Shown: positions 13,437-25,335 of the stretch, in pieces
How the letters are laid out: each line of letters begins with the position of its first letter
How positions within the stretch are numbered: the first letter of the stretch is position 1
DNA from: an uncultured archaeon
Lineage (GTDB): Archaea > Thermoplasmatota > Thermoplasmata > Thermoplasmatales > Thermoplasmataceae
Reading direction: 5' to 3'
Assembly: GCA_000965745.1 (NCBI GenBank)
Contig: CP009479.1
Location: 992,001 to 1,056,000 of the forward strand
Length of the DNA: 64,000 bases
The notes under the pieces: generated by a model
Told to the model about the DNA's origin: nothing
The model's database searches: none
Seen by the model: the letters and a program-made list of their open reading frames with translations, nothing else
Made by a program: the position numbers and the translations under genes

Positions 13437-15074
13437 TTGCATGGTATGGAAGGGGCCATATTTTACCTGTATATTCTTGGTGCTGTTCTTGCAACGTTCG
13501 CAAGAATATGGCTTCTGATGGGCGTTTCCATACTTATAGCTCTTATCATGGGCATACTGGCTGCAAGGGTAAGATCGGCTGGGGCAATTATCATACCTCT
13601 TACAAATGTACTTCAGGCGGTCCCGGTAGTATCGTTTTTTCCCATCATACTCGTCTTCTTTCTTGTGAGAGTTCCGGGCGGGCTTGGAATTGAACTGGCC
13701 TCTGATTTTCTCATCATCACCGCCCTTGTATGGAACCTCATACTTGGAGTCTACGAGGCTGTAAGCCACATTCCGGAGCACTTCGACAACGTGGGGCGCG
13801 TTTACAGGATAAGCCTCTGGAGCAAGATAAAAAAACTGTACATGCCGGCCTCGTACCCTACGATTGTGTCAAACATCATGCCTTCGTTTGCAAGCGGGCT
13901 TTTCTACATAACCCTGAGTGAGGTGATAGCGATTGGGAGCAGGACATACCAGGTCTTCGGGGTAGGGGGCATAGCACAGGAACTTGTGGCCTCATACAAT
14001 TTCGGTGGGGTGCTCGTGCTTCTTGGGATGCTCGTAGTGGGAATATCCCTGAATTTCTATTTCATCATAAACCCGCTTCTAAAGAGAACAGAGAAATACA
14101 CTTTTGACACGACGGCTGCAATAGAAAGCCGGGAAGAACGCCGTATCAGGGAAAATGTGTTCCTGTCCAACATATCAAGAAGGGTGAATCAGGTTGTGAA
14201 TACCAGTGTCAGCGCTGTAACTGCCATCAACAGGTTCATGAATCCAAGGTCCCGTCGTGAAAGGAGGAGGTCACAGTTCCCCATACCTGAAAGGTCTCTC
14301 AATATTGTAGTAGGCCTGCTTCTGGTAGCTTCACTTTCAACCATAGTCTACCTCATTGCCAGATCGGGCTTTGCCGAGGCCTTCACCTCCTATTTGCTGA
14401 ACATCGGGTTCATAAAAAGCCTCATTATCGGAGTTTCGTACGATCTTCTCCGCGTGCTCATAGTATTCGCACTCTCACTCGTTACCATGGTCCCTCTTGC
14501 GATGTATTTCGGCAACAAGGGGCAGAAAAGCAAGATGTCCACTGGCGTATTCCAGATACTCTATTCCATACCTGCACCAATTTTTTACCCTCTGATTGTA
14601 GTCTTCCTCACTCCATTTCTCGCAAAATATATGGGGGCGGACCTGGCATTCGAGGTCAACGTGATAATAATAACATTTCTTTCGGCAGCTGCATACATAT
14701 TCTTCAACGTTTACGGAGCAGTCAGGGCTATTCCCACTGAACTCAAGACTGTCACCAAAGTCTTCGGCCTCAAACGCTCCAGGATTACAAGATACCTGAC
14801 ATTTCCTGCCAGCATTCCGGCACTGATCACAGGTTCTATGGCCGCAATAGGGAGCTATTGGGGAGGGTTAATGGTTGGAGAATATACTGTTGTAGGTGAT
14901 ACCCATTATTCTGTCTCAACCGGCCTGATGGCAATGCTCGACAAAGCAATTGCGACAAACAACCTGCTGGAGGCGGATGCCATCGACATTTTCATGGTCG
15001 TAATTATTGTGGCAATATCATTCCTGCTCTTCAGGCGCCTCTACTCATACTCGAAGAGAAAATACACATATTGA
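13437..15074 (+). CDS. NitT/TauT-type ABC transporter permease with two fused permease domains
   Basis: LQAVPVVSFFP..WNLILGVYE and ILYSIPAPIFYP..FNVYGAVRAIP..PASIPALITG repeats. Confidence 0.88.
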   Translation: MHGMEGAIFYLYILGAVLATFARIWLLMGVSILIALIMGILAARVRSAGAIIIPLTNVLQAVPVVSFFPIILVFFLVRVPGGLGIELASDFLIITALVWNLILGVYEAVSHIPEHFDNVGRVYRISLWSKIKKLYMPASYPTIVSNIMPSFASGLFYITLSEVIAIGSRTYQVFGVGGIAQELVASYNFGGVLVLLGMLVVGISLNFYFIINPLLKRTEKYTFDTTAAIESREERRIRENVFLSNISRRVNQVVNTSVSAVTAINRFMNPRSRRERRRSQFPIPERSLNIVVGLLLVASLSTIVYLIARSGFAEAFTSYLLNIGFIKSLIIGVSYDLLRVLIVFALSLVTMVPLAMYFGNKGQKSKMSTGVFQILYSIPAPIFYPLIVVFLTPFLAKYMGADLAFEVNVIIITFLSAAAYIFFNVYGAVRAIPTELKTVTKVFGLKRSRITRYLTFPASIPALITGSMAAIGSYWGGLMVGEYTVVGDTHYSVSTGLMAMLDKAIATNNLLEADAIDIFMVVIIVAISFLLFRRLYSYSKRKYTY

Positions 15075-15094
15075 GGACAGGGGAGGTCGGAGAG

Positions 15095-15682
15095 TTGAAA
15101 AACTTACTTATGCTCGACTTATAAGATATGGGCCTGAGGGGAACGCTGTCCGGTTCAAAGGTGCGGCAATCAGGCTTTCCTGCGAGCTGATTGTCACGGC
15201 AGTTGGAGCTTATTTTTCATACACATCAATCGGGATACCGATGTACAACGCCAATGAAAACGTCATCAGTTCCACAGTCACTTCACTGGTCTATTCATTC
15301 CTTCTGGTCTTTGGAATCTATGTTTTCAGCACTGATCTGTCCATTCGGCTGGAGAAGCAACGGCCGTCCGCGCTTAAAATCGTTATACTATCAGGAGTCG
15401 CTTTATCAATAGTCTCTCTGCCATTCTTGATTTACTATGACTTCTATTACAGTTACTCTACGGTGATCTCAGGATCTCAACACTATCTACCCATATGCTG
15501 TTCAACCCGGCATGCCATTCTTGCTGGGTCTGTTCATCGCCTTCATTGCATGGAGCCAAATGTTTGTGCGGTGGGCCAGAAAAGGAGGCATAGGCGTGAG
15601 AGCCAGGCGTTTTGTAAGGACCTCAAAATACAGTGTGAAAATCCCGTTCAGAGACAAGGATGGTAACCATGACGACAAATAA
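15095..15682 (+). pseudogene. Frameshifted multi-pass membrane protein
   Basis: GGAGGT then TTG at 15095 is out of frame with the TM-rich body; a +1 shift near 15470 restores a TM plus basic tail (DLNTIYPYAVQPGMPFLLGLFIAFIAWSQMF...DDK*). Confidence 0.45.
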
Positions 15683-16062: not shown

Positions 16063-16166
16063 ATGGAATCTTGCATATAATATATCTAAATATATTAAGC
16101 TTGTCCCAATTTGTTAATGGTTCTACGAATTACGTATTGTTTAAAAAAGCCTTAAACTACCCAGTT

Positions 16167-17953: not shown

Positions 17954-18796
17954 ATGCCAAACAAAGTCTCTGAAATCATGACAAAGGATCCCATATTCCA
18001 CACGGTTCCGAGTTCACCAAATGAGGTTGTCAAGAAGTTAATCCAGAACAGCATAACAGGTATGCCCATGGCAGATAACAAGGGCAAGTATGTTGGCATG
18101 ATCAGCAGGCGTGATATATTCAACAACCCTTCCGAAACCCAAACGGCCATGGTGATGAGGAAAGCCAGCGCTGTCCTGGATTCTGACAGCATAGAGAGCG
18201 CAGCACTTGAAATGCTCCACCAGAGGAGGAGGCACATAGCAGTCGTGAACGCGGACAATCGCATTGTTGGAATCCTGACTCCACAGAACTTCCTGCCAAT
18301 TATCAGAGAAAAGTTTGGCGACACAAAGGTCAAGAATGTGATGATGAGCCTCTGCGTCCCAATATGGGATGAGACCCCTATCAACGTTGTTCTTTACTCC
18401 ATGAGCCTCTCCGGTGTGTATTCATCGCCGGTAATCGACTCAAATGAGAAATTTGTGGGCCTCATCACTGACAGGGATATATTCGACAAGGTCGATCTTA
18501 AGCCCCAGACCATGCTGGCGGAATCAGGCATTGCAGATGATGAAGATCCCTGGTCATGGGGCGGCATAAGAAATGTAATGACATACATGATCGAGAAGAA
18601 TTACATAAAACTCCCTAAAACTCCCGTTAAGGACATAATGGTTAAGGAACCTGCTGTAGTCTACAAGAATGACAAGCTGAGAGAACTGGTAAAGACCATG
18701 GAGGTGAAAAACTTCAACCAGCTTCCGGTTCTTGAGAGCGAAGGCAAATTAATCGGAATGCTATACGACATCGAATTAATGAGCGTATTTGCATGA
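17954..18796 (+). CDS. Four-CBS-domain protein
   Basis: Repeated VSEIM/VKNVM/VKDIM and P-V-D...VG-I CBS patterns. Confidence 0.9.
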   Translation: MPNKVSEIMTKDPIFHTVPSSPNEVVKKLIQNSITGMPMADNKGKYVGMISRRDIFNNPSETQTAMVMRKASAVLDSDSIESAALEMLHQRRRHIAVVNADNRIVGILTPQNFLPIIREKFGDTKVKNVMMSLCVPIWDETPINVVLYSMSLSGVYSSPVIDSNEKFVGLITDRDIFDKVDLKPQTMLAESGIADDEDPWSWGGIRNVMTYMIEKNYIKLPKTPVKDIMVKEPAVVYKNDKLRELVKTMEVKNFNQLPVLESEGKLIGMLYDIELMSVFA

Positions 18797-20010
18797 GTGT
18801 GTATGAAGAGGTAGTGGAACTAGCTAAAAGAAGAGGAATACTCTGGCCCGCCTTCTTCCATATCCGGGGGCCAGGCAGGTTTTTTATGATTATGGGCCAA
18901 TAGGCGTGCTTCTCAAGGTAATATTGTAAATGTGTGGAAGCAGGGTTACCTGAAGGAAGACGCCATATTGATGGACAGCCCGAATGTTACGCCATCACCG
19001 GTCTTGAGGGCACTTAGAAAACTTTGCAGACCTGGCAGTTGACTGCACTGGGTGCAAGTCAAAGTCCAAGCTCGAGTAGGTACTCAAATCGGCATCAGTG
19101 GGCATAACCCCAAAGACGAAGGAAGAGGCAGACTCAATTCTTAAGCAGTATGAAGACAAATGCCTCAACTGCGGGGCAAGGATCAATGAAGCATATTCGG
19201 CAGATCTCATGTCCAAGGTTGAGACAAACCAGTCTGGAGAAGCTCTTATATCAGTCCGGGAACGGCGCAGGGCATGTTCATCAACCTCAATCTTCTGAAC
19301 AGCTATTGCCGCGGAAAGCTGCCTATGGCAGTAGCACAGCTGGGGAAAGGTTTCAGGAATGAGGTCTCACCGAGACAGAGCCTGATCAGAATGAGGGAAT
19401 TCTTTCATGGTGAAGTGGAGGTGTTCCTGCAGAGAAAGCTTCTGCGACTGCTGGGATGCAGAGGCAATGATTGACGGAGACTGGGTCGAGATTGTCGGAA
19501 TTTCCGACAGTGGCACGTATGATCTCACCAGGCACCAAGAGTCATCCGGCGAGAACATGAATGTTAACATAGACGGACAGCGGTACCTTCCAAGGGTTGT
19601 GGAGCCTGCCCACGGGATAGATCGCATATTCATGGCTGTTCTCAAACATTCCTGCTACCGGCGGGATAGCGGGTACAAGATTCTAAAGCTCAATCTGGAG
19701 ATTGCCCAGTATCATGCTGCAATTCTCCCACTGATGAAAAAAGAGGGTCTTAAGGACTTCGCAAGTGAATTGTACGGCAAGATAAATGAGTTCGATCCTC
19801 CCCTCGTATACGATGAAACGGGGATAATTGGAAAGAGATACGCAGGGCAGGACGAAATCGGAACCCGGTTCTGCATCGCTGCAGATTATCAGACTCTGGA
19901 GGACAGGACTGTAACCGTAAGGTTCAGGGACCCGACCGAGCAGATAAGGATTTCAGCAGACCTGCTCCTGAAAGAAAGAAGAATTGTGGGCAATGGGGCA
20001 CTTGCTGAAC
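18793..20010 (+). pseudogene. glyS: Glycyl-tRNA synthetase (alpha2 type) pseudogene
   Basis: Fragments ELAKRRG, YDYGPIG, HLENFAD, TAQGMFIN, AQLGKGFRNEVSPRQSLIRMREF, DCWDAE, PRVVEPAHGIDR, QDEIGT lie in different frames; in-frame TAG at 19077; internal deletion. Confidence 0.92.
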
Positions 20011-20217
20011 TTACTCAATCTTATTTATCCTTATTATTCCGGTGGGGCATGAGAGTGCGGCTTCCCTGTTGCACTCAAGATCCTCCTCATCAATTATCTC
20101 ATTTCTGAACGATGCTTTTCCGTCCATATCCATAAACCAGTTCTGGGGGCATATGGCCGTGCAGATTGTATCGGCCAGGCAGCCCGACCTGTCTACGCTT
20201 ATCCTGTATTTTGACAT
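20011..20217 (-). CDS. Single-cluster ferredoxin ([3Fe-4S]/[4Fe-4S], Asp at second ligand position)
   Basis: CLADTICTAICP ... CNREAALSCPTGII. Confidence 0.9.
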   Translation of the reverse strand: MSKYRISVDRSGCLADTICTAICPQNWFMDMDGKASFRNEIIDEEDLECNREAALSCPTGIIRINKIE

Positions 20218-20233
20218 TAATATCCAACCCGAA

Positions 20234-20617
20234 TCATTGGCTCGACTGGTACTCTTTTATGCATTTCTGAAGTGTGTTGAATGAAAGAAGGGCACATTTC
20301 TCCCTGCTGGGCCCGAGCTTAAGGCCAATCATGTCTATTACGCTCTCCTCGTCGATCTCCTTTAGCTCTTCAAGGGACTTTCCCATGATCCTGTCTGTGA
20401 GCATTGATGCCGAGGCCTGGCTTATGGAGCAGCCTTTTCCAACAAATTTAACGTCCTTTACGGCCCCATCCTCTATCAGCAGGGAGATGTTGACGGTATC
20501 CCCGCATACTGGATTTGACTCTGTCATGGATACGGTGGCGTTTTCCAGAGTTCCATAGTTATGGGGTTCCCTGTAGTGTTCCAAAACGATTTCAGCCTGC
20601 ATATCGTTATCGCTCAT
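20234..20617 (-). CDS. sufU: SufU/NifU-like Fe-S scaffold/sulfur-transfer protein
   Basis: HYREPHN, NPVCGD, GCSISQASAS, REKCALL. Confidence 0.92.
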   Translation of the reverse strand: MSDNDMQAEIVLEHYREPHNYGTLENATVSMTESNPVCGDTVNISLLIEDGAVKDVKFVGKGCSISQASASMLTDRIMGKSLEELKEIDEESVIDMIGLKLGPSREKCALLSFNTLQKCIKEYQSSQ

Positions 20618-21897
20618 CTTACGAACGCCTTCTGTACTTTTTTAAGGGCATCGAAGAGTGCATTCACGTCCTCCCTGGAGTTGTATATGTAGAATGATGC
20701 CCTCGAACTCGCCACAATCCCTAATTTATTATTTAAAGGCATGGCACAATGATGGCCTGACCTTATCGACAGGCCGTAGGAATCAAGGTCTGCTGCGACA
20801 TCATGCGGATGTACGGCGCTGGTTTCAACGGACTCTACTGAGAGCTTCCTGTTTAGGTCAAGAGGGTGTATTTCCCCTATGTTGAAGGAGTACACGCCTC
20901 CCCTTTCCTGAACCTCCCTTGGTCCGTAGGAGACAAGATCCTTTATCCCGGATTCAATTTCCTTCTGAAGGACATAGGAAACCAGCTCCATTTCGTGACG
21001 GCGGACATTCTCCATTCCGAGGCCCCTGAGGAAATCCACTGCTGCTGAAAGACCTATAGCACCTTCAATATTGGGGGTGCCAGCTTCAAATTTCAATGGA
21101 GTATCATTCCAGGTTGATTCCTCAAGGCTTACCTCCCTGATCATCTCGCCCCCTCCCATGAAGGGGTGGAGGCTGTCAAGAAGGTCGAATTTTCCGTAAA
21201 GTACGCCTATGCCGGACGGGCCGAGCATTTTATGGCCTGAAAATGCCATGAAATCACAGCCTATGTCTTCCACATCAACTGGCATGTGCGGGACGCTCTG
21301 AGCCCCATCAACTATGAATACCGACCCGTTCTCATGGGCGATTCGCCCAATCTCCTTAACGGGGTTGATAGTTCCAAGCAGGTTTGAAACGTGTGTCAGG
21401 GAAACTATCTTTGTCCTCTTGCTTATTTTGCTCTTCAGGTCCTCAAGATCCAGATTTCCATCCGAACCGATATCCACAAATTTGAGTCTGACTCCTTTTT
21501 CCTTCAGGAACTGCCATGGCACGATATTGGAATGGTGCTCCATCACCGAAAGGAGAATCTCGTCTCCCTCTGTCAGGGACCTACCCAGTGTGTACGAAAG
21601 AAAATTCAGCGCTTCTGTGGCATTTCTCACAAAAACGATCTGCCTGCTGTCCTTAGAACCTATGAAATGTGACACGTTCTCCCTGGAGGCGTCATAAAGT
21701 TCCGTAGCTTCCTCACTTATTGTATAGATTCCCCTGTGGACGTTGCTGTTTGAATTGTAATAATAATCAACTATGGCATCTACAACCTCGACCGGTTTCT
21801 GTGTGGTTGCAGCACTATCAAGATAAACCAGTCTGTTGCCTTTTATTTCTCTGTTAAAAATGGGAAAATGTGATTTTATTTCTTCAGGGTTAATCAT
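20614..21897 (-). CDS. sufS: Cysteine desulfurase SufS
   Basis: YLDSAATTQKP, EHHSNIVPWQ, FSGHKMLGPSG, RSGHHCA; start set to ATG 21897 overlapping sufD stop. Confidence 0.95.
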   Translation of the reverse strand: MINPEEIKSHFPIFNREIKGNRLVYLDSAATTQKPVEVVDAIVDYYYNSNSNVHRGIYTISEEATELYDASRENVSHFIGSKDSRQIVFVRNATEALNFLSYTLGRSLTEGDEILLSVMEHHSNIVPWQFLKEKGVRLKFVDIGSDGNLDLEDLKSKISKRTKIVSLTHVSNLLGTINPVKEIGRIAHENGSVFIVDGAQSVPHMPVDVEDIGCDFMAFSGHKMLGPSGIGVLYGKFDLLDSLHPFMGGGEMIREVSLEESTWNDTPLKFEAGTPNIEGAIGLSAAVDFLRGLGMENVRRHEMELVSYVLQKEIESGIKDLVSYGPREVQERGGVYSFNIGEIHPLDLNRKLSVESVETSAVHPHDVAADLDSYGLSIRSGHHCAMPLNNKLGIVASSRASFYIYNSREDVNALFDALKKVQKAFVR

Positions 21898-23131
21898 TCT
21901 CATCCAGGCTCTCAGCGTACTCATACACTTTTTGGGTAAAAAGATCACTCCTAGCCTTTTCTATAAGTGAAGCCACAAACCCTCCAGTTATGATCTTCTT
22001 CGCCTCGCCTGGCGGGATTCCTCTGGACCTCAGATACAATATCTGCTCATCATCCACGTTGCTTATCGAAGAGCCATGCTTTGACCTGGTGTCATTATTC
22101 TTTATCATCAGCCCCGGTTTGGTGTTGGCATAACCCTGCTTTGAAAGTAGCAGTATCTTCGAGTCATAGAAGCCCGTTGATTTCCTGGACATTTCCTCCA
22201 TGTCAACATTTCCTCTGTGCATGGTGGAGCTTCCGCCCGTTACGACTCCTCTTACATTTATGCCTGCGGTTGTTTCCGCCCCGACCTGGAAACTACTGTC
22301 CCTTATGTCCATCTTCTGTTGTTTCTCGGAGAAACTGACGCCGTATACTTTGAAGCTTGAGCCTTTGCCAGGCTGCTGAGATTCGTTTGTGAAAAGGACC
22401 TTGCTTGAGCCGTGATGGATGTGGTATATCTCAAACTCTGCATAATCGTCCTCAAACGCCTTCACATGGGTGAGGTCCACAACGCTCTGGACATTGTCCT
22501 GAAGGTAGTTGTACTGGACTTTGCTGTTCTTTCCTAGGAAGAAATAGATATTCTTTCCATGGACACCATCACCTTTTCCGGTTGTGCTGTACGTATCCGT
22601 AAGGTTCAGCTTCGTATCGTCTTCCAGGATGATGACTGTCTTGAACGCAAATGAGGCGGTGGAGTCGAAGACCACTTCAGATTTCATCTCTATGCTTCCG
22701 GCCTTCCTTGGGATGTATATGAAAATCCCGTTCTGCCAGGAGGAGTTTATCAGATATTCAGTCCTTTCATCCCCGAACTTCCCCTCCGTGTATTTGCTGA
22801 GAAGATCACTGTGCTCCGAGATCGCGGTTTTCATGTCGGTTACAATGACGCCTTTTTTCTCAAGCTCACTGTTCACGTGAAGACGGTCATTGTCCATCAG
22901 TATGTCCGTGTTTGGAGGGAACTTTATGGTTTCTGACTTCTCAGGGAGGGTAATTTCCCCGAAAATCATCCTTTCAAGCTCTTCGTCTGTGATTTCAACG
23001 TAGTCTTTTACTGTAGGGCTCTCCTTGTGGATTCTGATGGGGAGTTTGAGGTATTCCTTGAATGCCTCAACCCTGTAGTCGTACTGCTGATCGCTGAATT
23101 TAGTTTTGAGTGTTTCCGGATATTCTTCCAT
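21890..23131 (-). CDS. sufD: Fe-S assembly protein SufD
   Basis: beta-helix repeats, KHGSS, YLRSRGI; between sufB and sufS. Confidence 0.9.
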   Translation of the reverse strand: MEEYPETLKTKFSDQQYDYRVEAFKEYLKLPIRIHKESPTVKDYVEITDEELERMIFGEITLPEKSETIKFPPNTDILMDNDRLHVNSELEKKGVIVTDMKTAISEHSDLLSKYTEGKFGDERTEYLINSSWQNGIFIYIPRKAGSIEMKSEVVFDSTASFAFKTVIILEDDTKLNLTDTYSTTGKGDGVHGKNIYFFLGKNSKVQYNYLQDNVQSVVDLTHVKAFEDDYAEFEIYHIHHGSSKVLFTNESQQPGKGSSFKVYGVSFSEKQQKMDIRDSSFQVGAETTAGINVRGVVTGGSSTMHRGNVDMEEMSRKSTGFYDSKILLLSKQGYANTKPGLMIKNNDTRSKHGSSISNVDDEQILYLRSRGIPPGEAKKIITGGFVASLIEKARSDLFTQKVYEYAESLDEND

Positions 23132-23137
23132 GTCCGA

Positions 23138-24580
23138 TCATCCTTGTGCGCCGAGTTTGCCCATTTCAAGTTTTATGAGTCTGTTCATCTCGATGGCAAA
23201 TTCCATCGGGATCTCCTTCATGACATCATCGAGGAAACCAAGGACTATCATTGAGCTTGCCTCATCCTCACTGAGGCCTCTTGACCTCAGGTAATGAAGC
23301 TCGTCAGTACCTATCTTTCCAACAGATGCTTCATGGCCGAATGTTGCAGTTGGCTCATAAACTTCATCGTGCGGAAATGTGTATGATGTTGACTCATCAT
23401 TTATCAGAAGGGCATCACACTGCACGTGGCTCTTGGAGTGCTCTGCCCCCTTGTTCATCCTCAGGAGCCCTCTGTATATTGCCTTCCCATCCTCTATGCT
23501 GATGCTCTTGGCAACTATTCTTGAATTCGTGTAAGGGGCGAGGTGAATTGCTTTTGCGCCAGTGTCTTTAACTGTGCCTGGACCCGCGAGTGATATGTTG
23601 AGGTTGCTCGTTGTCGCGTGCGGCCCTCTCAGGTATGAGGACGGGTAAAGCATCGTAACCTTTGAACCAAGTGAGCCTCCGACCCATTCCATTTTTGCAT
23701 TCTCGTCCACCCATGCCCTCTTTGTAGGCATGTTGTAGACACTCTTGGACCAGTTCTGGACACTTGTGTATCTGGCTTCTGAGTTCTTCTTCGCGTAGAT
23801 TTCCACTATGGCACTGTGGAGTGAATTCTTGTCGTACCTTGGGGCTGTGCATCCCTCTATGTAGTGGACTTTTGAACCCTCGTCTGCAACGACTATTGTG
23901 TGTTCAAACTGTCCGGTTGCCTCTCCGTTCATCCTGAAATAGGTCTGAAGGGGCATGTCTATCTGCACTCCGGGAGGGACATACAGGAATGAACCTCCAC
24001 TCCAGACTGCACCGTTGAGTGCTGCAAACTTGTTGTCAGAGAAAGGTACTGCCTTGCAGTAGTAGTCCTTCACAAGGTCCGGGTGCTCTTTTACAGCGGT
24101 ATCAAGATCCATGAAAACGACTCCCTTGTCTTCCCATGTTTTCTTGAGATTGTGGTATACACCTTCGCTGTCGTACTGGGCAACTGAGCCTGCGAGGTAT
24201 TTCTGTTCCATTTCAGGAATTCCAAGCTTCTCGAACGTGTTTTTTATTTCATCTGGAACCTCATCCCAGTCCTGTGACTTGTTTTCATCGTATTTGTTGT
24301 AAAAAGAGGTGTTCTCCCAATCTATGCCTGAAAGATCAGGGCCCCATGTTGGGATGGGCTTTGACTCAAACACCTCAAGTGCCTTGAGCCTCATCCTCTT
24401 CATCCATTCAGGCTCTTTCTTGATCTCTGAAATCTCTTCAACAACTTGCTTATTCAGTCCAGCTCCCGTTGAATAAAGGGGCTTTAGTGAATCGTGAAAC
24501 TCCCAGTCTGAGGATTTGACGCTCTTCAAATCTTCCAGAAGTTTCTCCATTTCTTCATCTTTATTATACTCAACTTCCAT
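23138..24580 (-). CDS. sufB: Fe-S assembly protein SufB
   Basis: AQYDSE, AVWSGGSF, GQFEHT, YIEGCTAP, CDALL, HEASVGKI. Confidence 0.96.
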   Translation of the reverse strand: MEVEYNKDEEMEKLLEDLKSVKSSDWEFHDSLKPLYSTGAGLNKQVVEEISEIKKEPEWMKRMRLKALEVFESKPIPTWGPDLSGIDWENTSFYNKYDENKSQDWDEVPDEIKNTFEKLGIPEMEQKYLAGSVAQYDSEGVYHNLKKTWEDKGVVFMDLDTAVKEHPDLVKDYYCKAVPFSDNKFAALNGAVWSGGSFLYVPPGVQIDMPLQTYFRMNGEATGQFEHTIVVADEGSKVHYIEGCTAPRYDKNSLHSAIVEIYAKKNSEARYTSVQNWSKSVYNMPTKRAWVDENAKMEWVGGSLGSKVTMLYPSSYLRGPHATTSNLNISLAGPGTVKDTGAKAIHLAPYTNSRIVAKSISIEDGKAIYRGLLRMNKGAEHSKSHVQCDALLINDESTSYTFPHDEVYEPTATFGHEASVGKIGTDELHYLRSRGLSEDEASSMIVLGFLDDVMKEIPMEFAIEMNRLIKLEMGKLGAQG

Positions 24581-24597
24581 TCTTTACACCATCCTTA

Positions 24598-25335
24598 TTA
24601 GGCTTTAATCCAATCATACCCATCCTCCTCAATCCTGAGGGAAAGGGCCTTGTCACCGTCTTTTATAATTTTCCCGCTCATCAGAATATGAACGAACTCA
24701 GGCTCTATGTCCTTGAGTATTCTCTGGTAGTGGGTGATTATCAGGAATCCGACGTCCTGGTTGTAGTATTTCTTGATTTCAGCTGCGACCAGCTTGAGGG
24801 CATCGACATCGAGGCCTGAGTCGATCTCGTCAAGGACTACGATCCTGGGCTTGAGCATGACCATTTGCAGTATCTCTACTCTCTTACGCTCCCCTCCTGA
24901 GAAACCGTCGTTAACAGCTCTCTGGATAAACGACTCATCGAGCCCGAGATTTTTCATATGCTCTTTCATTGTGTTGTAAAATTCCGTAATCTTGATCTTG
25001 TCTTCAGGGTGCACATTCTTGTACGCTGTTCTTATGAATGTTCCAAGCTTTACGCCAGCTACAGAAATAGGGCTCTGAAATGCAAGGAACAGCCCGGCTT
25101 TTGCTCTCTCTTCAGGGGTCTTGTCTGCGAGCTCTTTTCCGTCCAGTTTTACTGAACCGCCCGTTATCTCATAGCTGGGATGCCCTATCAGGACATTTCC
25201 CAAGGTACTTTTGCCTGCTCCGTTTGGACCCATCAGAGCATGAATTTCTCCCCCTTTCACAGTAAGATTAACGCCGTTGAGAATCTGCTTGCCTTCAACC
25301 TTGGCTGAAAGATCTTTGATGACTAATTCTGACAT
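24598..25335 (-). CDS. sufC: Fe-S assembly ATPase SufC
   Basis: GPNGAGKST, VNDGFSGGERKR, LDEIDSGLDVDAL, ITHYQR. Confidence 0.96.
   Translation of the reverse strand: MSELVIKDLSAKVEGKQILNGVNLTVKGGEIHALMGPNGAGKSTLGNVLIGHPSYEITGGSVKLDGKELADKTPEERAKAGLFLAFQSPISVAGVKLGTFIRTAYKNVHPEDKIKITEFYNTMKEHMKNLGLDESFIQRAVNDGFSGGERKRVEILQMVMLKPRIVVLDEIDSGLDVDALKLVAAEIKKYYNQDVGFLIITHYQRILKDIEPEFVHILMSGKIIKDGDKALSLRIEEDGYDWIKA

Follow-up and report, generated by a model that had tools for sequence, protein, structure and literature searches.

Decay of the native glycyl-tRNA synthetase gene in a Thermoplasmataceae archaeon and its probable displacement by a Micrarchaeota-type enzyme

A broken synthetase gene between intact neighbors

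The window analyzed here, i.e. the whole stretch of 64,000 nucleotides, belongs to a genome (G000) that consists of a single 2.23-Mb contig and is 99.4% complete. By means of a profile search and a frameshift-aware alignment to the intact glycyl-tRNA synthetase (GlyRS) protein of the congener G001, a dead gene for an alpha2 GlyRS was located on the plus strand at 18793–20018. It starts in an ATGA overlap with an intact gene for a CBS-domain protein of 280 amino acids (17954–18796, plus strand; identities of 81% with G001 and 86% with G002). G001 shows this overlap as well. At its other end, the remnant converges with an intact gene for a small 4Fe-4S ferredoxin (20011–20217, minus strand), which is followed by intact genes for IscU/NifU, SufS, SufD, SufB and SufC (20234–25335, minus strand) that make up the conserved flank of the native glyS locus. 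All the genes around the remnant are intact and 70–99% identical to those of the congeners. Upstream of the CBS gene, the window also contains an open reading frame of 219 amino acids (15007–15666, plus strand), which has 43–49% identity among congeners at partial coverage, compared to 74–96% for its neighbors.

The matches of the remnant to the GlyRS family model NF003211/TIGR00389 are split into three pieces within 18870–19967. Their scores are 183.7, 78.3 and 39.2 bits, all below the family cut-off of 312 bits, so that no single frame amounts to a GlyRS. The alignment to the G001 protein, in which frameshifts were allowed and which was then compared with the raw sequence, yields a total of six frameshifts, two in-frame stop codons, one deletion of ca 225 nt and the loss of the terminal stop codon. 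The reading frame follows the order 1, 2, 0, 2, 0, 2, 0. The first three changes are found within 18856–18919 (near 18856, 18881 and 18918–18919), and the fourth, near 18998, is followed by an in-frame TGA at 19005–19007. An in-frame TAG is present at 19077–19079, and the fifth frame change takes place near 19236. The deletion and the sixth change, near 19451, together occupy 19433–19451. At the junction, ca 237 nt are reduced to 13 nt (19433–19445), flanked by EVEVFLQ and DCWDAE, and 79 residues of the catalytic core (216–294 in G001) are gone. With its stop codon lost, the last frame continues to 20108, running antisense over the ferredoxin gene.

The remnant is 70% identical to the intact G001 orthologue over 400 aligned codons, and it is changed at 10 of the 75 positions that are invariant among 30 intact relatives. 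Intact members of the family, used as controls in the same test, show 0–2 changes per ca 80 invariant positions. The terminal branch of the remnant in a 49-sequence tree is also longer, 0.43 compared to 0.28–0.31 for its sister sequences. The remnant is thus under relaxed selection relative to the intact orthologues. The signatures of the catalytic core, namely RPETAQ, the arginine of DR.GTYDL, and R..DE.GTP, are all degraded, which is not compatible with a functional GlyRS. Directly after the fifth frame change (19236–19265), YLRPETAQG has become YISPGTAQG, although the L, R and E are invariant in the 30 intact relatives. IADRGTYDL has become ISDSGTYDL, in which the arginine of the motif is altered, and ARQDEVGTP has become AGQDEIGTR, in which the motif R is an invariant residue and the motif P is changed to R relative to G001.

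The preliminary description, made from the sequence alone, had declared this gene dead. It had pointed to the ATGA overlap with the CBS gene, several frameshifts, the TAG, a deletion between EVEVFL and DCWDAE, the changed residues of the last two motifs, and a final frame reaching into the antisense ferredoxin gene. All of these are real, and the sub-cut-off profile matches, the TGA and the degraded YLRPETAQG motif were found in addition.

One alternative is that the gene is truly intact, with breaks that stem from errors of sequencing or assembly or mark sites of programmed recoding. Two of the frame changes do coincide with short runs of one base, G5 near 18864 and T6 near 18876–18881. However, contig NODE_937 of the ENA metagenome assembly ERZ1746102 (L128), which was produced with a different assembler and is named as short-read assemblers name their contigs, shows the identical sequence over 5712 nt, including the whole remnant. 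The lone mismatch is at 16090, outside the remnant. Since an independent assembly has the identical sequence, an assembly error is excluded, and this candidate is rejected also by the nature of the lesions: neither error nor recoding fits with two stop codons, 79 lost core residues and altered invariant catalytic residues. The intact neighbors, which had been taken early on as an argument against sequencing noise, point in the same direction. We consider the probability of this alternative to be practically nil.

An assembly that does seem to suffer from such errors is that of another genome, G011. At G011:C3:105000–118500 (L043), the genes for CBS, GlyRS, SufS, SufB and SufC are all split into adjacent frames, which looks like a frameshift-error-rich assembly. 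The split GlyRS of G011 was accordingly rejected as a second case of decay, since its neighboring genes are split too, indicating a low-quality assembly.

To identify the remnant, it is necessary to distinguish between two types of GlyRS in the family, called type A for the form encoded at the CBS-glyS locus and type B for the form represented by the one intact GlyRS of G000. The remnant is 64–70% identical to the type-A genes of G001 and G003, and 36–42% identical to type B. In the trees, it groups with G001 and G003 (100/100), and all three fall inside the type-A clade of the family (100/99), to which the longer GlyRS forms of the remaining families in the order are related. The gene order CBS-glyS(A)-(ferredoxin)-IscU-SufSDBC is found in G001, G003 and G011, and also in the genera g2, g16, g5, g7, g17, g11 and g3. 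In G001 and G003, glyS lies between CBS and ferredoxin-IscU-SufS-SufD-SufB-SufC, matching the position of the remnant. Because trees and synteny agree, the dead gene is the vertically inherited one, i.e. the remnant is a pseudogene of the native orthologue. The suggestion that this is the native locus is thus upheld, with CBS-glyS synteny in G001, G003 and at least seven other genera of the family. The opposite scenario, in which the intact copy would be the syntenic native orthologue, is contradicted by the synteny in ten genomes and was rejected. A recent duplicate was likewise rejected, as the two copies are merely 36–42% identical.

It is important to point out that a part of the remnant is still readable. 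The last open frame (19407–20108, plus strand) encodes 233 amino acids with motif 3 and the anticodon-binding domain. The latter is still recognizable, with a match to PF03129 (HGTP_anticodon) on record, and the C-terminal part of the remnant matches positions 270–450 of NF003211. This frame starts with ATG and is called as a gene in another assembly, and the remnant persists while relatives have deleted the gene. One could thus imagine that the frame, or a transcript of the remnant, is still of use, perhaps by providing a free anticodon-binding domain or a spacer needed for the expression of the CBS or ferredoxin gene. This is, however, very unlikely. Four of the ten altered invariant residues (R to S, P to Q, R to G and T to A) fall in the 233-residue part, and its native stop is lost. 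G002 manages without this DNA, having only 18 nt between CBS and ferredoxin, and such a fragment is kept in none of the 11 other genomes with a type-B gene. In practice, annotation pipelines may call the 233-residue fragment a gene.

The live GlyRS and its distribution in the family

We now turn our attention to the enzyme that is left. That a second GlyRS must exist had been argued from the indispensability of the enzyme, and one intact alpha2 GlyRS was indeed found in the genome, of type B, at G000:C1:1322856–1324325. The gene has a full-length frame of 489 amino acids without stops. The protein scores 444.7 bits against the cut-off of 312, covers model positions 2–454, and retains every residue that is invariant across an alignment of 18 sequences. 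The G000 genome was also searched for GlyQ/GlyS as a bacterial-type back-up, and none was found. On the basis of these sequence comparisons, type B would now perform the essential GlyRS function.

The type-B gene is located ca 310 kb from the native locus. G000 and G002 have the arrangement methyltransferase - tRNA-His - GlyRS-B - SdhDCBA in common, while in G001 and G003 the same methyltransferase-tRNA-His pair is followed by a flippase-like gene. The tRNA-His gene (L044:5823–5895) ends up 161 nt before GlyRS-B in G000:C1. A tRNA gene is a typical integration site; the tRNA-His gene in question is present in the type-A congeners as well. At the type-B locus, no integrase, mobile-element genes or co-transferred neighbors were found, only the adjacent tRNA-His and open reading frames without Pfam matches. 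One of the latter, with 132 amino acids (L044:7675–8073, G000:C1), comes after GlyRS-B and is absent from G002. In G084 (L048), two further open reading frames, one of them of the Ta1207 family, are situated between tRNA-His and GlyRS. The GC content is uninformative as a signal of transfer, being 51% for type B, 50% for the remnant and 46% (46.4%) for the genome.

In the genus g2, the acquired GlyRS is found ca 0.9 kb from the gene for ribosomal protein S3Ae (L039:6769–7395 and L040:4660–5286), and GlyRS is near S3Ae also in two Micrarchaeota contigs (L074 and L075). The S3Ae proteins are 25% identical, which shows that S3Ae was not co-transferred, and the shared neighborhood may be coincidental.

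A total of 103 genomes of the family were searched, and a GlyRS match was obtained in 99. Type B is present in 12 of these 99 and is restricted to four genera, namely g1 (2 of 4 genomes), g2 (6 of 9), g16 (3 of 9) and g5 (1 of the 2 with a match), all of which also hold type-A species. Both copies intact were found in none of the 99 genomes. No type-A fragment was detectable in the other type-B genomes, and G000 is the only sampled genome with a type-A remnant. In G004 and G023, CBS lies directly beside IscU.

Prolyl-tRNA synthetase (ProRS) is dimorphic in this family too. The enzymes of all four g4 genomes and of G016, G087 and G046 are 35–39% identical to the ProRS of G000 (G000:C1:1407966–1409366, outside the window), compared to 51–78% for relatives. 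From these identities, it would seem that a second synthetase has been replaced in Thermoplasmataceae.

Origin and age of the replacement

The type-B protein of G000 is 89% identical to that of G002, 71–77% identical to those of ten other genomes of the family, and 35–40% identical to every type A. Its nearest relatives outside the family are labeled as Micrarchaeota, with identities of 57–65%. These labels derive from metagenome bins; several of the Micrarchaeota GlyRS are, however, encoded on contigs of 0.6–1.05 Mb, the size of a whole Micrarchaeota chromosome, which argues against a binning error. The other six families of the order have, in the sampled genomes, exclusively the long form related to type A.

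The trees tell the same story. In the 91-sequence tree, the type-B clade (99) lies inside a Micrarchaeota clade with a support of 100. In the 49-sequence tree, for which a full search was made, the type-B clade (100/99) is sister to two Micrarchaeota sequences (92/81), and the six further Micrarchaeota nodes above it have ultrafast bootstrap values of 91–97. The SH-aLRT values at several of the Micrarchaeota backbone nodes are 75–94, i.e. good but not maximal. The AU test rejects a Micrarchaeota-only clade without type B (p = 0.027, log-likelihood difference of 52), for a group that was named after the tree had been seen. Of the two routes of displacement that had been envisaged initially, through a duplicated or a xenologous GlyRS, the xenologous one is thus favored by the identity of 36–42% and the position inside Micrarchaeota, while the duplicate does not hold. 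A tree including the remnant places it, as described above, with G001 and G003, and the live copy within Micrarchaeota.

Short GlyRS of the type-B kind, with identities of 42–56%, occur also in other orders of Thermoplasmatota and in Woese-, Aenigm- and Nanoarchaeota (L076–L082 and L086–L126), and one Thermoplasmatota MAG, L076, is found at the base of the Micrarchaeota GlyRS clade. Further back in time, the short form has a tangled history in DPANN and Thermoplasmatota.

Micrarchaeota, tiny members of the DPANN archaea, live attached to Thermoplasmatales as obligate episymbionts (PMC5498576, PMC8975820). From the tree topology, we infer that type B was acquired from Micrarchaeota, in that direction and with a single origin. 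The alternative is that types A and B are ancient native paralogues, such that differential loss alone would account for the present distribution, or that the transfer went from the host to Micrarchaeota. In line with this, type-B sequences from one genus group together, type-B divergence relative to that of ProRS stays roughly the same across genera (ratios of 0.5–0.7), a long coexistence of both types is evidently possible (see below), and the published transfers between these partners are mostly from host to symbiont (PMC5498576, PMC8975820). On the other hand, the 12 type-B sequences form one shallow clade several nodes inside a far more diverse Micrarchaeota clade, in agreement with the AU test. 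Type B is moreover missing in 87 of the 99 family genomes, and only the long form occurs in the genomes sampled from the six other families in the order. In addition, the type-B tree places G118 of genus g5 with g1 and g16, yet g5 falls with g2 in the type-A tree. We consider the native-paralogue or host-to-symbiont scenario to be improbable, and acquisition from Micrarchaeota is the reading adopted below.

The case of G118 is the sole conflict between the type-A and type-B trees when these are compared with each other, and it hints at spread within the family. The type-B distances between genera are only ca 0.25–0.35 of the type-A distances, which may reflect either a slower enzyme, combined with differential loss, or a later spread between genera. 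Dating of the between-genus transfers by identity relative to ProRS gave ambiguous results.

Concerning the timing, the type-B genes of G000 and G002 differ by a dS of ca 1.2, and the flanking genes by a saturated dS of 1–2.8; as dS is saturated between all congeners, these values are lower bounds only. Because the type-B locus is shared and dS is saturated, G000 and G002 probably inherited type B from their common ancestor. The remnant, in contrast, is only slightly decayed. It has lost 13% of the invariant residues and has an excess branch length of ca 0.13 amino-acid changes per site. Both figures correspond to ca 0.06 neutral substitutions per site, which is consistent with the seven indel events in 1.2 kb. 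Had the gene been neutral since the G000/G002 split, at least ca 0.5 substitutions per site would be expected, enough to erase type A. Provided that the remnant has evolved neutrally since its death, the slight decay compared to the saturated dS means that the lineage probably kept both enzymes for a long period, and that type A died only recently. Type A would then have been under selection alongside type B for most of the time since the split, and G002 would have lost its type A independently. The preliminary description had seen in this locus a displacement caught in progress. This is appropriate for the death of the native copy, which is recent, but not for the replacement gene, which is old and found in G002 at the same locus.

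Taken together, the data make it very probable that the native GlyRS has undergone a xenologous displacement by a Micrarchaeota-type copy. The replacement nests in a foreign clade and sits at a non-orthologous locus, between tRNA-His and Sdh. In the proposed sequence of events, a Micrarchaeota-type alpha2 GlyRS would enter the genome, where it is now located just downstream of the tRNA-His gene. As both enzymes would charge tRNA-Gly, selection would keep one of them, and type A would become dispensable. After a long coexistence of the two types, the recent death of type A would follow in the G000 lineage. The native copy would thus drift to a pseudogene in G000, while it would have been cleanly deleted in G002 and in the type-B species of g2.

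A wider proposal is that several genera have exchanged the host synthetase for the episymbiont version, through spread within the family, repeated loss or both, and that both versions were maintained for a long time in at least the G000 lineage. We judge this to be somewhat more probable than its opposite. If true, the family would offer a natural setting in which to study the passage of core informational genes from a DPANN symbiont into its host, and their fixation there. The either/or occurrence of GlyRS in four genera, together with the ProRS dimorphism, also suggests that synthetase swapping is recurrent in Thermoplasmataceae. One practical consequence is that GlyRS cannot safely be used in this family as a phylogenetic marker or for binning.

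Comparison with known systems

That aminoacyl-tRNA synthetases can be replaced through horizontal transfer is textbook knowledge, although such replacement is almost always inferred afterwards from trees, and core informational genes are usually regarded as hard to transfer. Xenologous displacement of these enzymes by horizontal transfer was reportedly treated by Wolf et al. in 1999, and Woese, Olsen, Ibba and Soll are said to have discussed the same topic in 2000. Andam, Williams and Gogarten reportedly dealt in 2010 with synthetase 'homeoalleles', i.e. divergent versions of an enzyme that take each other's place in related lineages, and Andam et al. are said to have described LeuRS homeoalleles in Halobacteriales in 2012.

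The present case resembles homeoalleles in that two GlyRS types, 35–40% identical, occur in an either/or fashion in one family, with four genera having both. It differs in that exchange between close relatives is only weakly indicated, namely by G118, and in the evidence for a long coexistence in one lineage, which is not part of the classical description.

Transfer of genes between Micrarchaeota (ARMAN) and Thermoplasmatales has been described for the same partners in acidic habitats, with physical cell-cell contact proposed as the route (PMC5498576, PMC8975820, PMC12892359). The reported transfers are mostly from host to symbiont and concern metabolic, lipid and metal-resistance genes (PMC5498576; PMC8975820; PMC12892359). 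The displacement proposed here would go in the opposite direction, from a symbiont-type source to the host, the donor being an obligate episymbiont of the recipient's order and the gene encoding a core translation enzyme. Terms for GlyRS or aminoacyl-tRNA synthetases were not found in the text of these three papers, and no literature was found on this specific GlyRS case. In sediments of acid mine drainage, viruses infecting DPANN archaea are reported to carry genes for ArgRS, AspRS, GluRS and MetRS, with GlyRS not being listed (PMC12647753). It is conceivable that such viruses serve as a vehicle for synthetase genes in acidic habitats.

As in the known displacements of aminoacyl-tRNA synthetases (PMC4427996), an essential synthetase has here given way to a distant enzyme of the same specificity, with one functional copy at a different locus. 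While such cases are almost always inferred from trees alone, the dead native copy at the syntenic locus documents the replacement directly. Because that gene is still in place, the order of events, i.e. gain, coexistence, decay, and clean deletion in the sister lineage, can be read directly. A further difference is that the donor would be the clade of the recipient's own episymbionts. The process as such is thus already known, and the present case is a new, well-documented example of it, which appears unusual in that the displaced native gene is visible, the source is of symbiont type, and there is evidence for a long period of redundancy.
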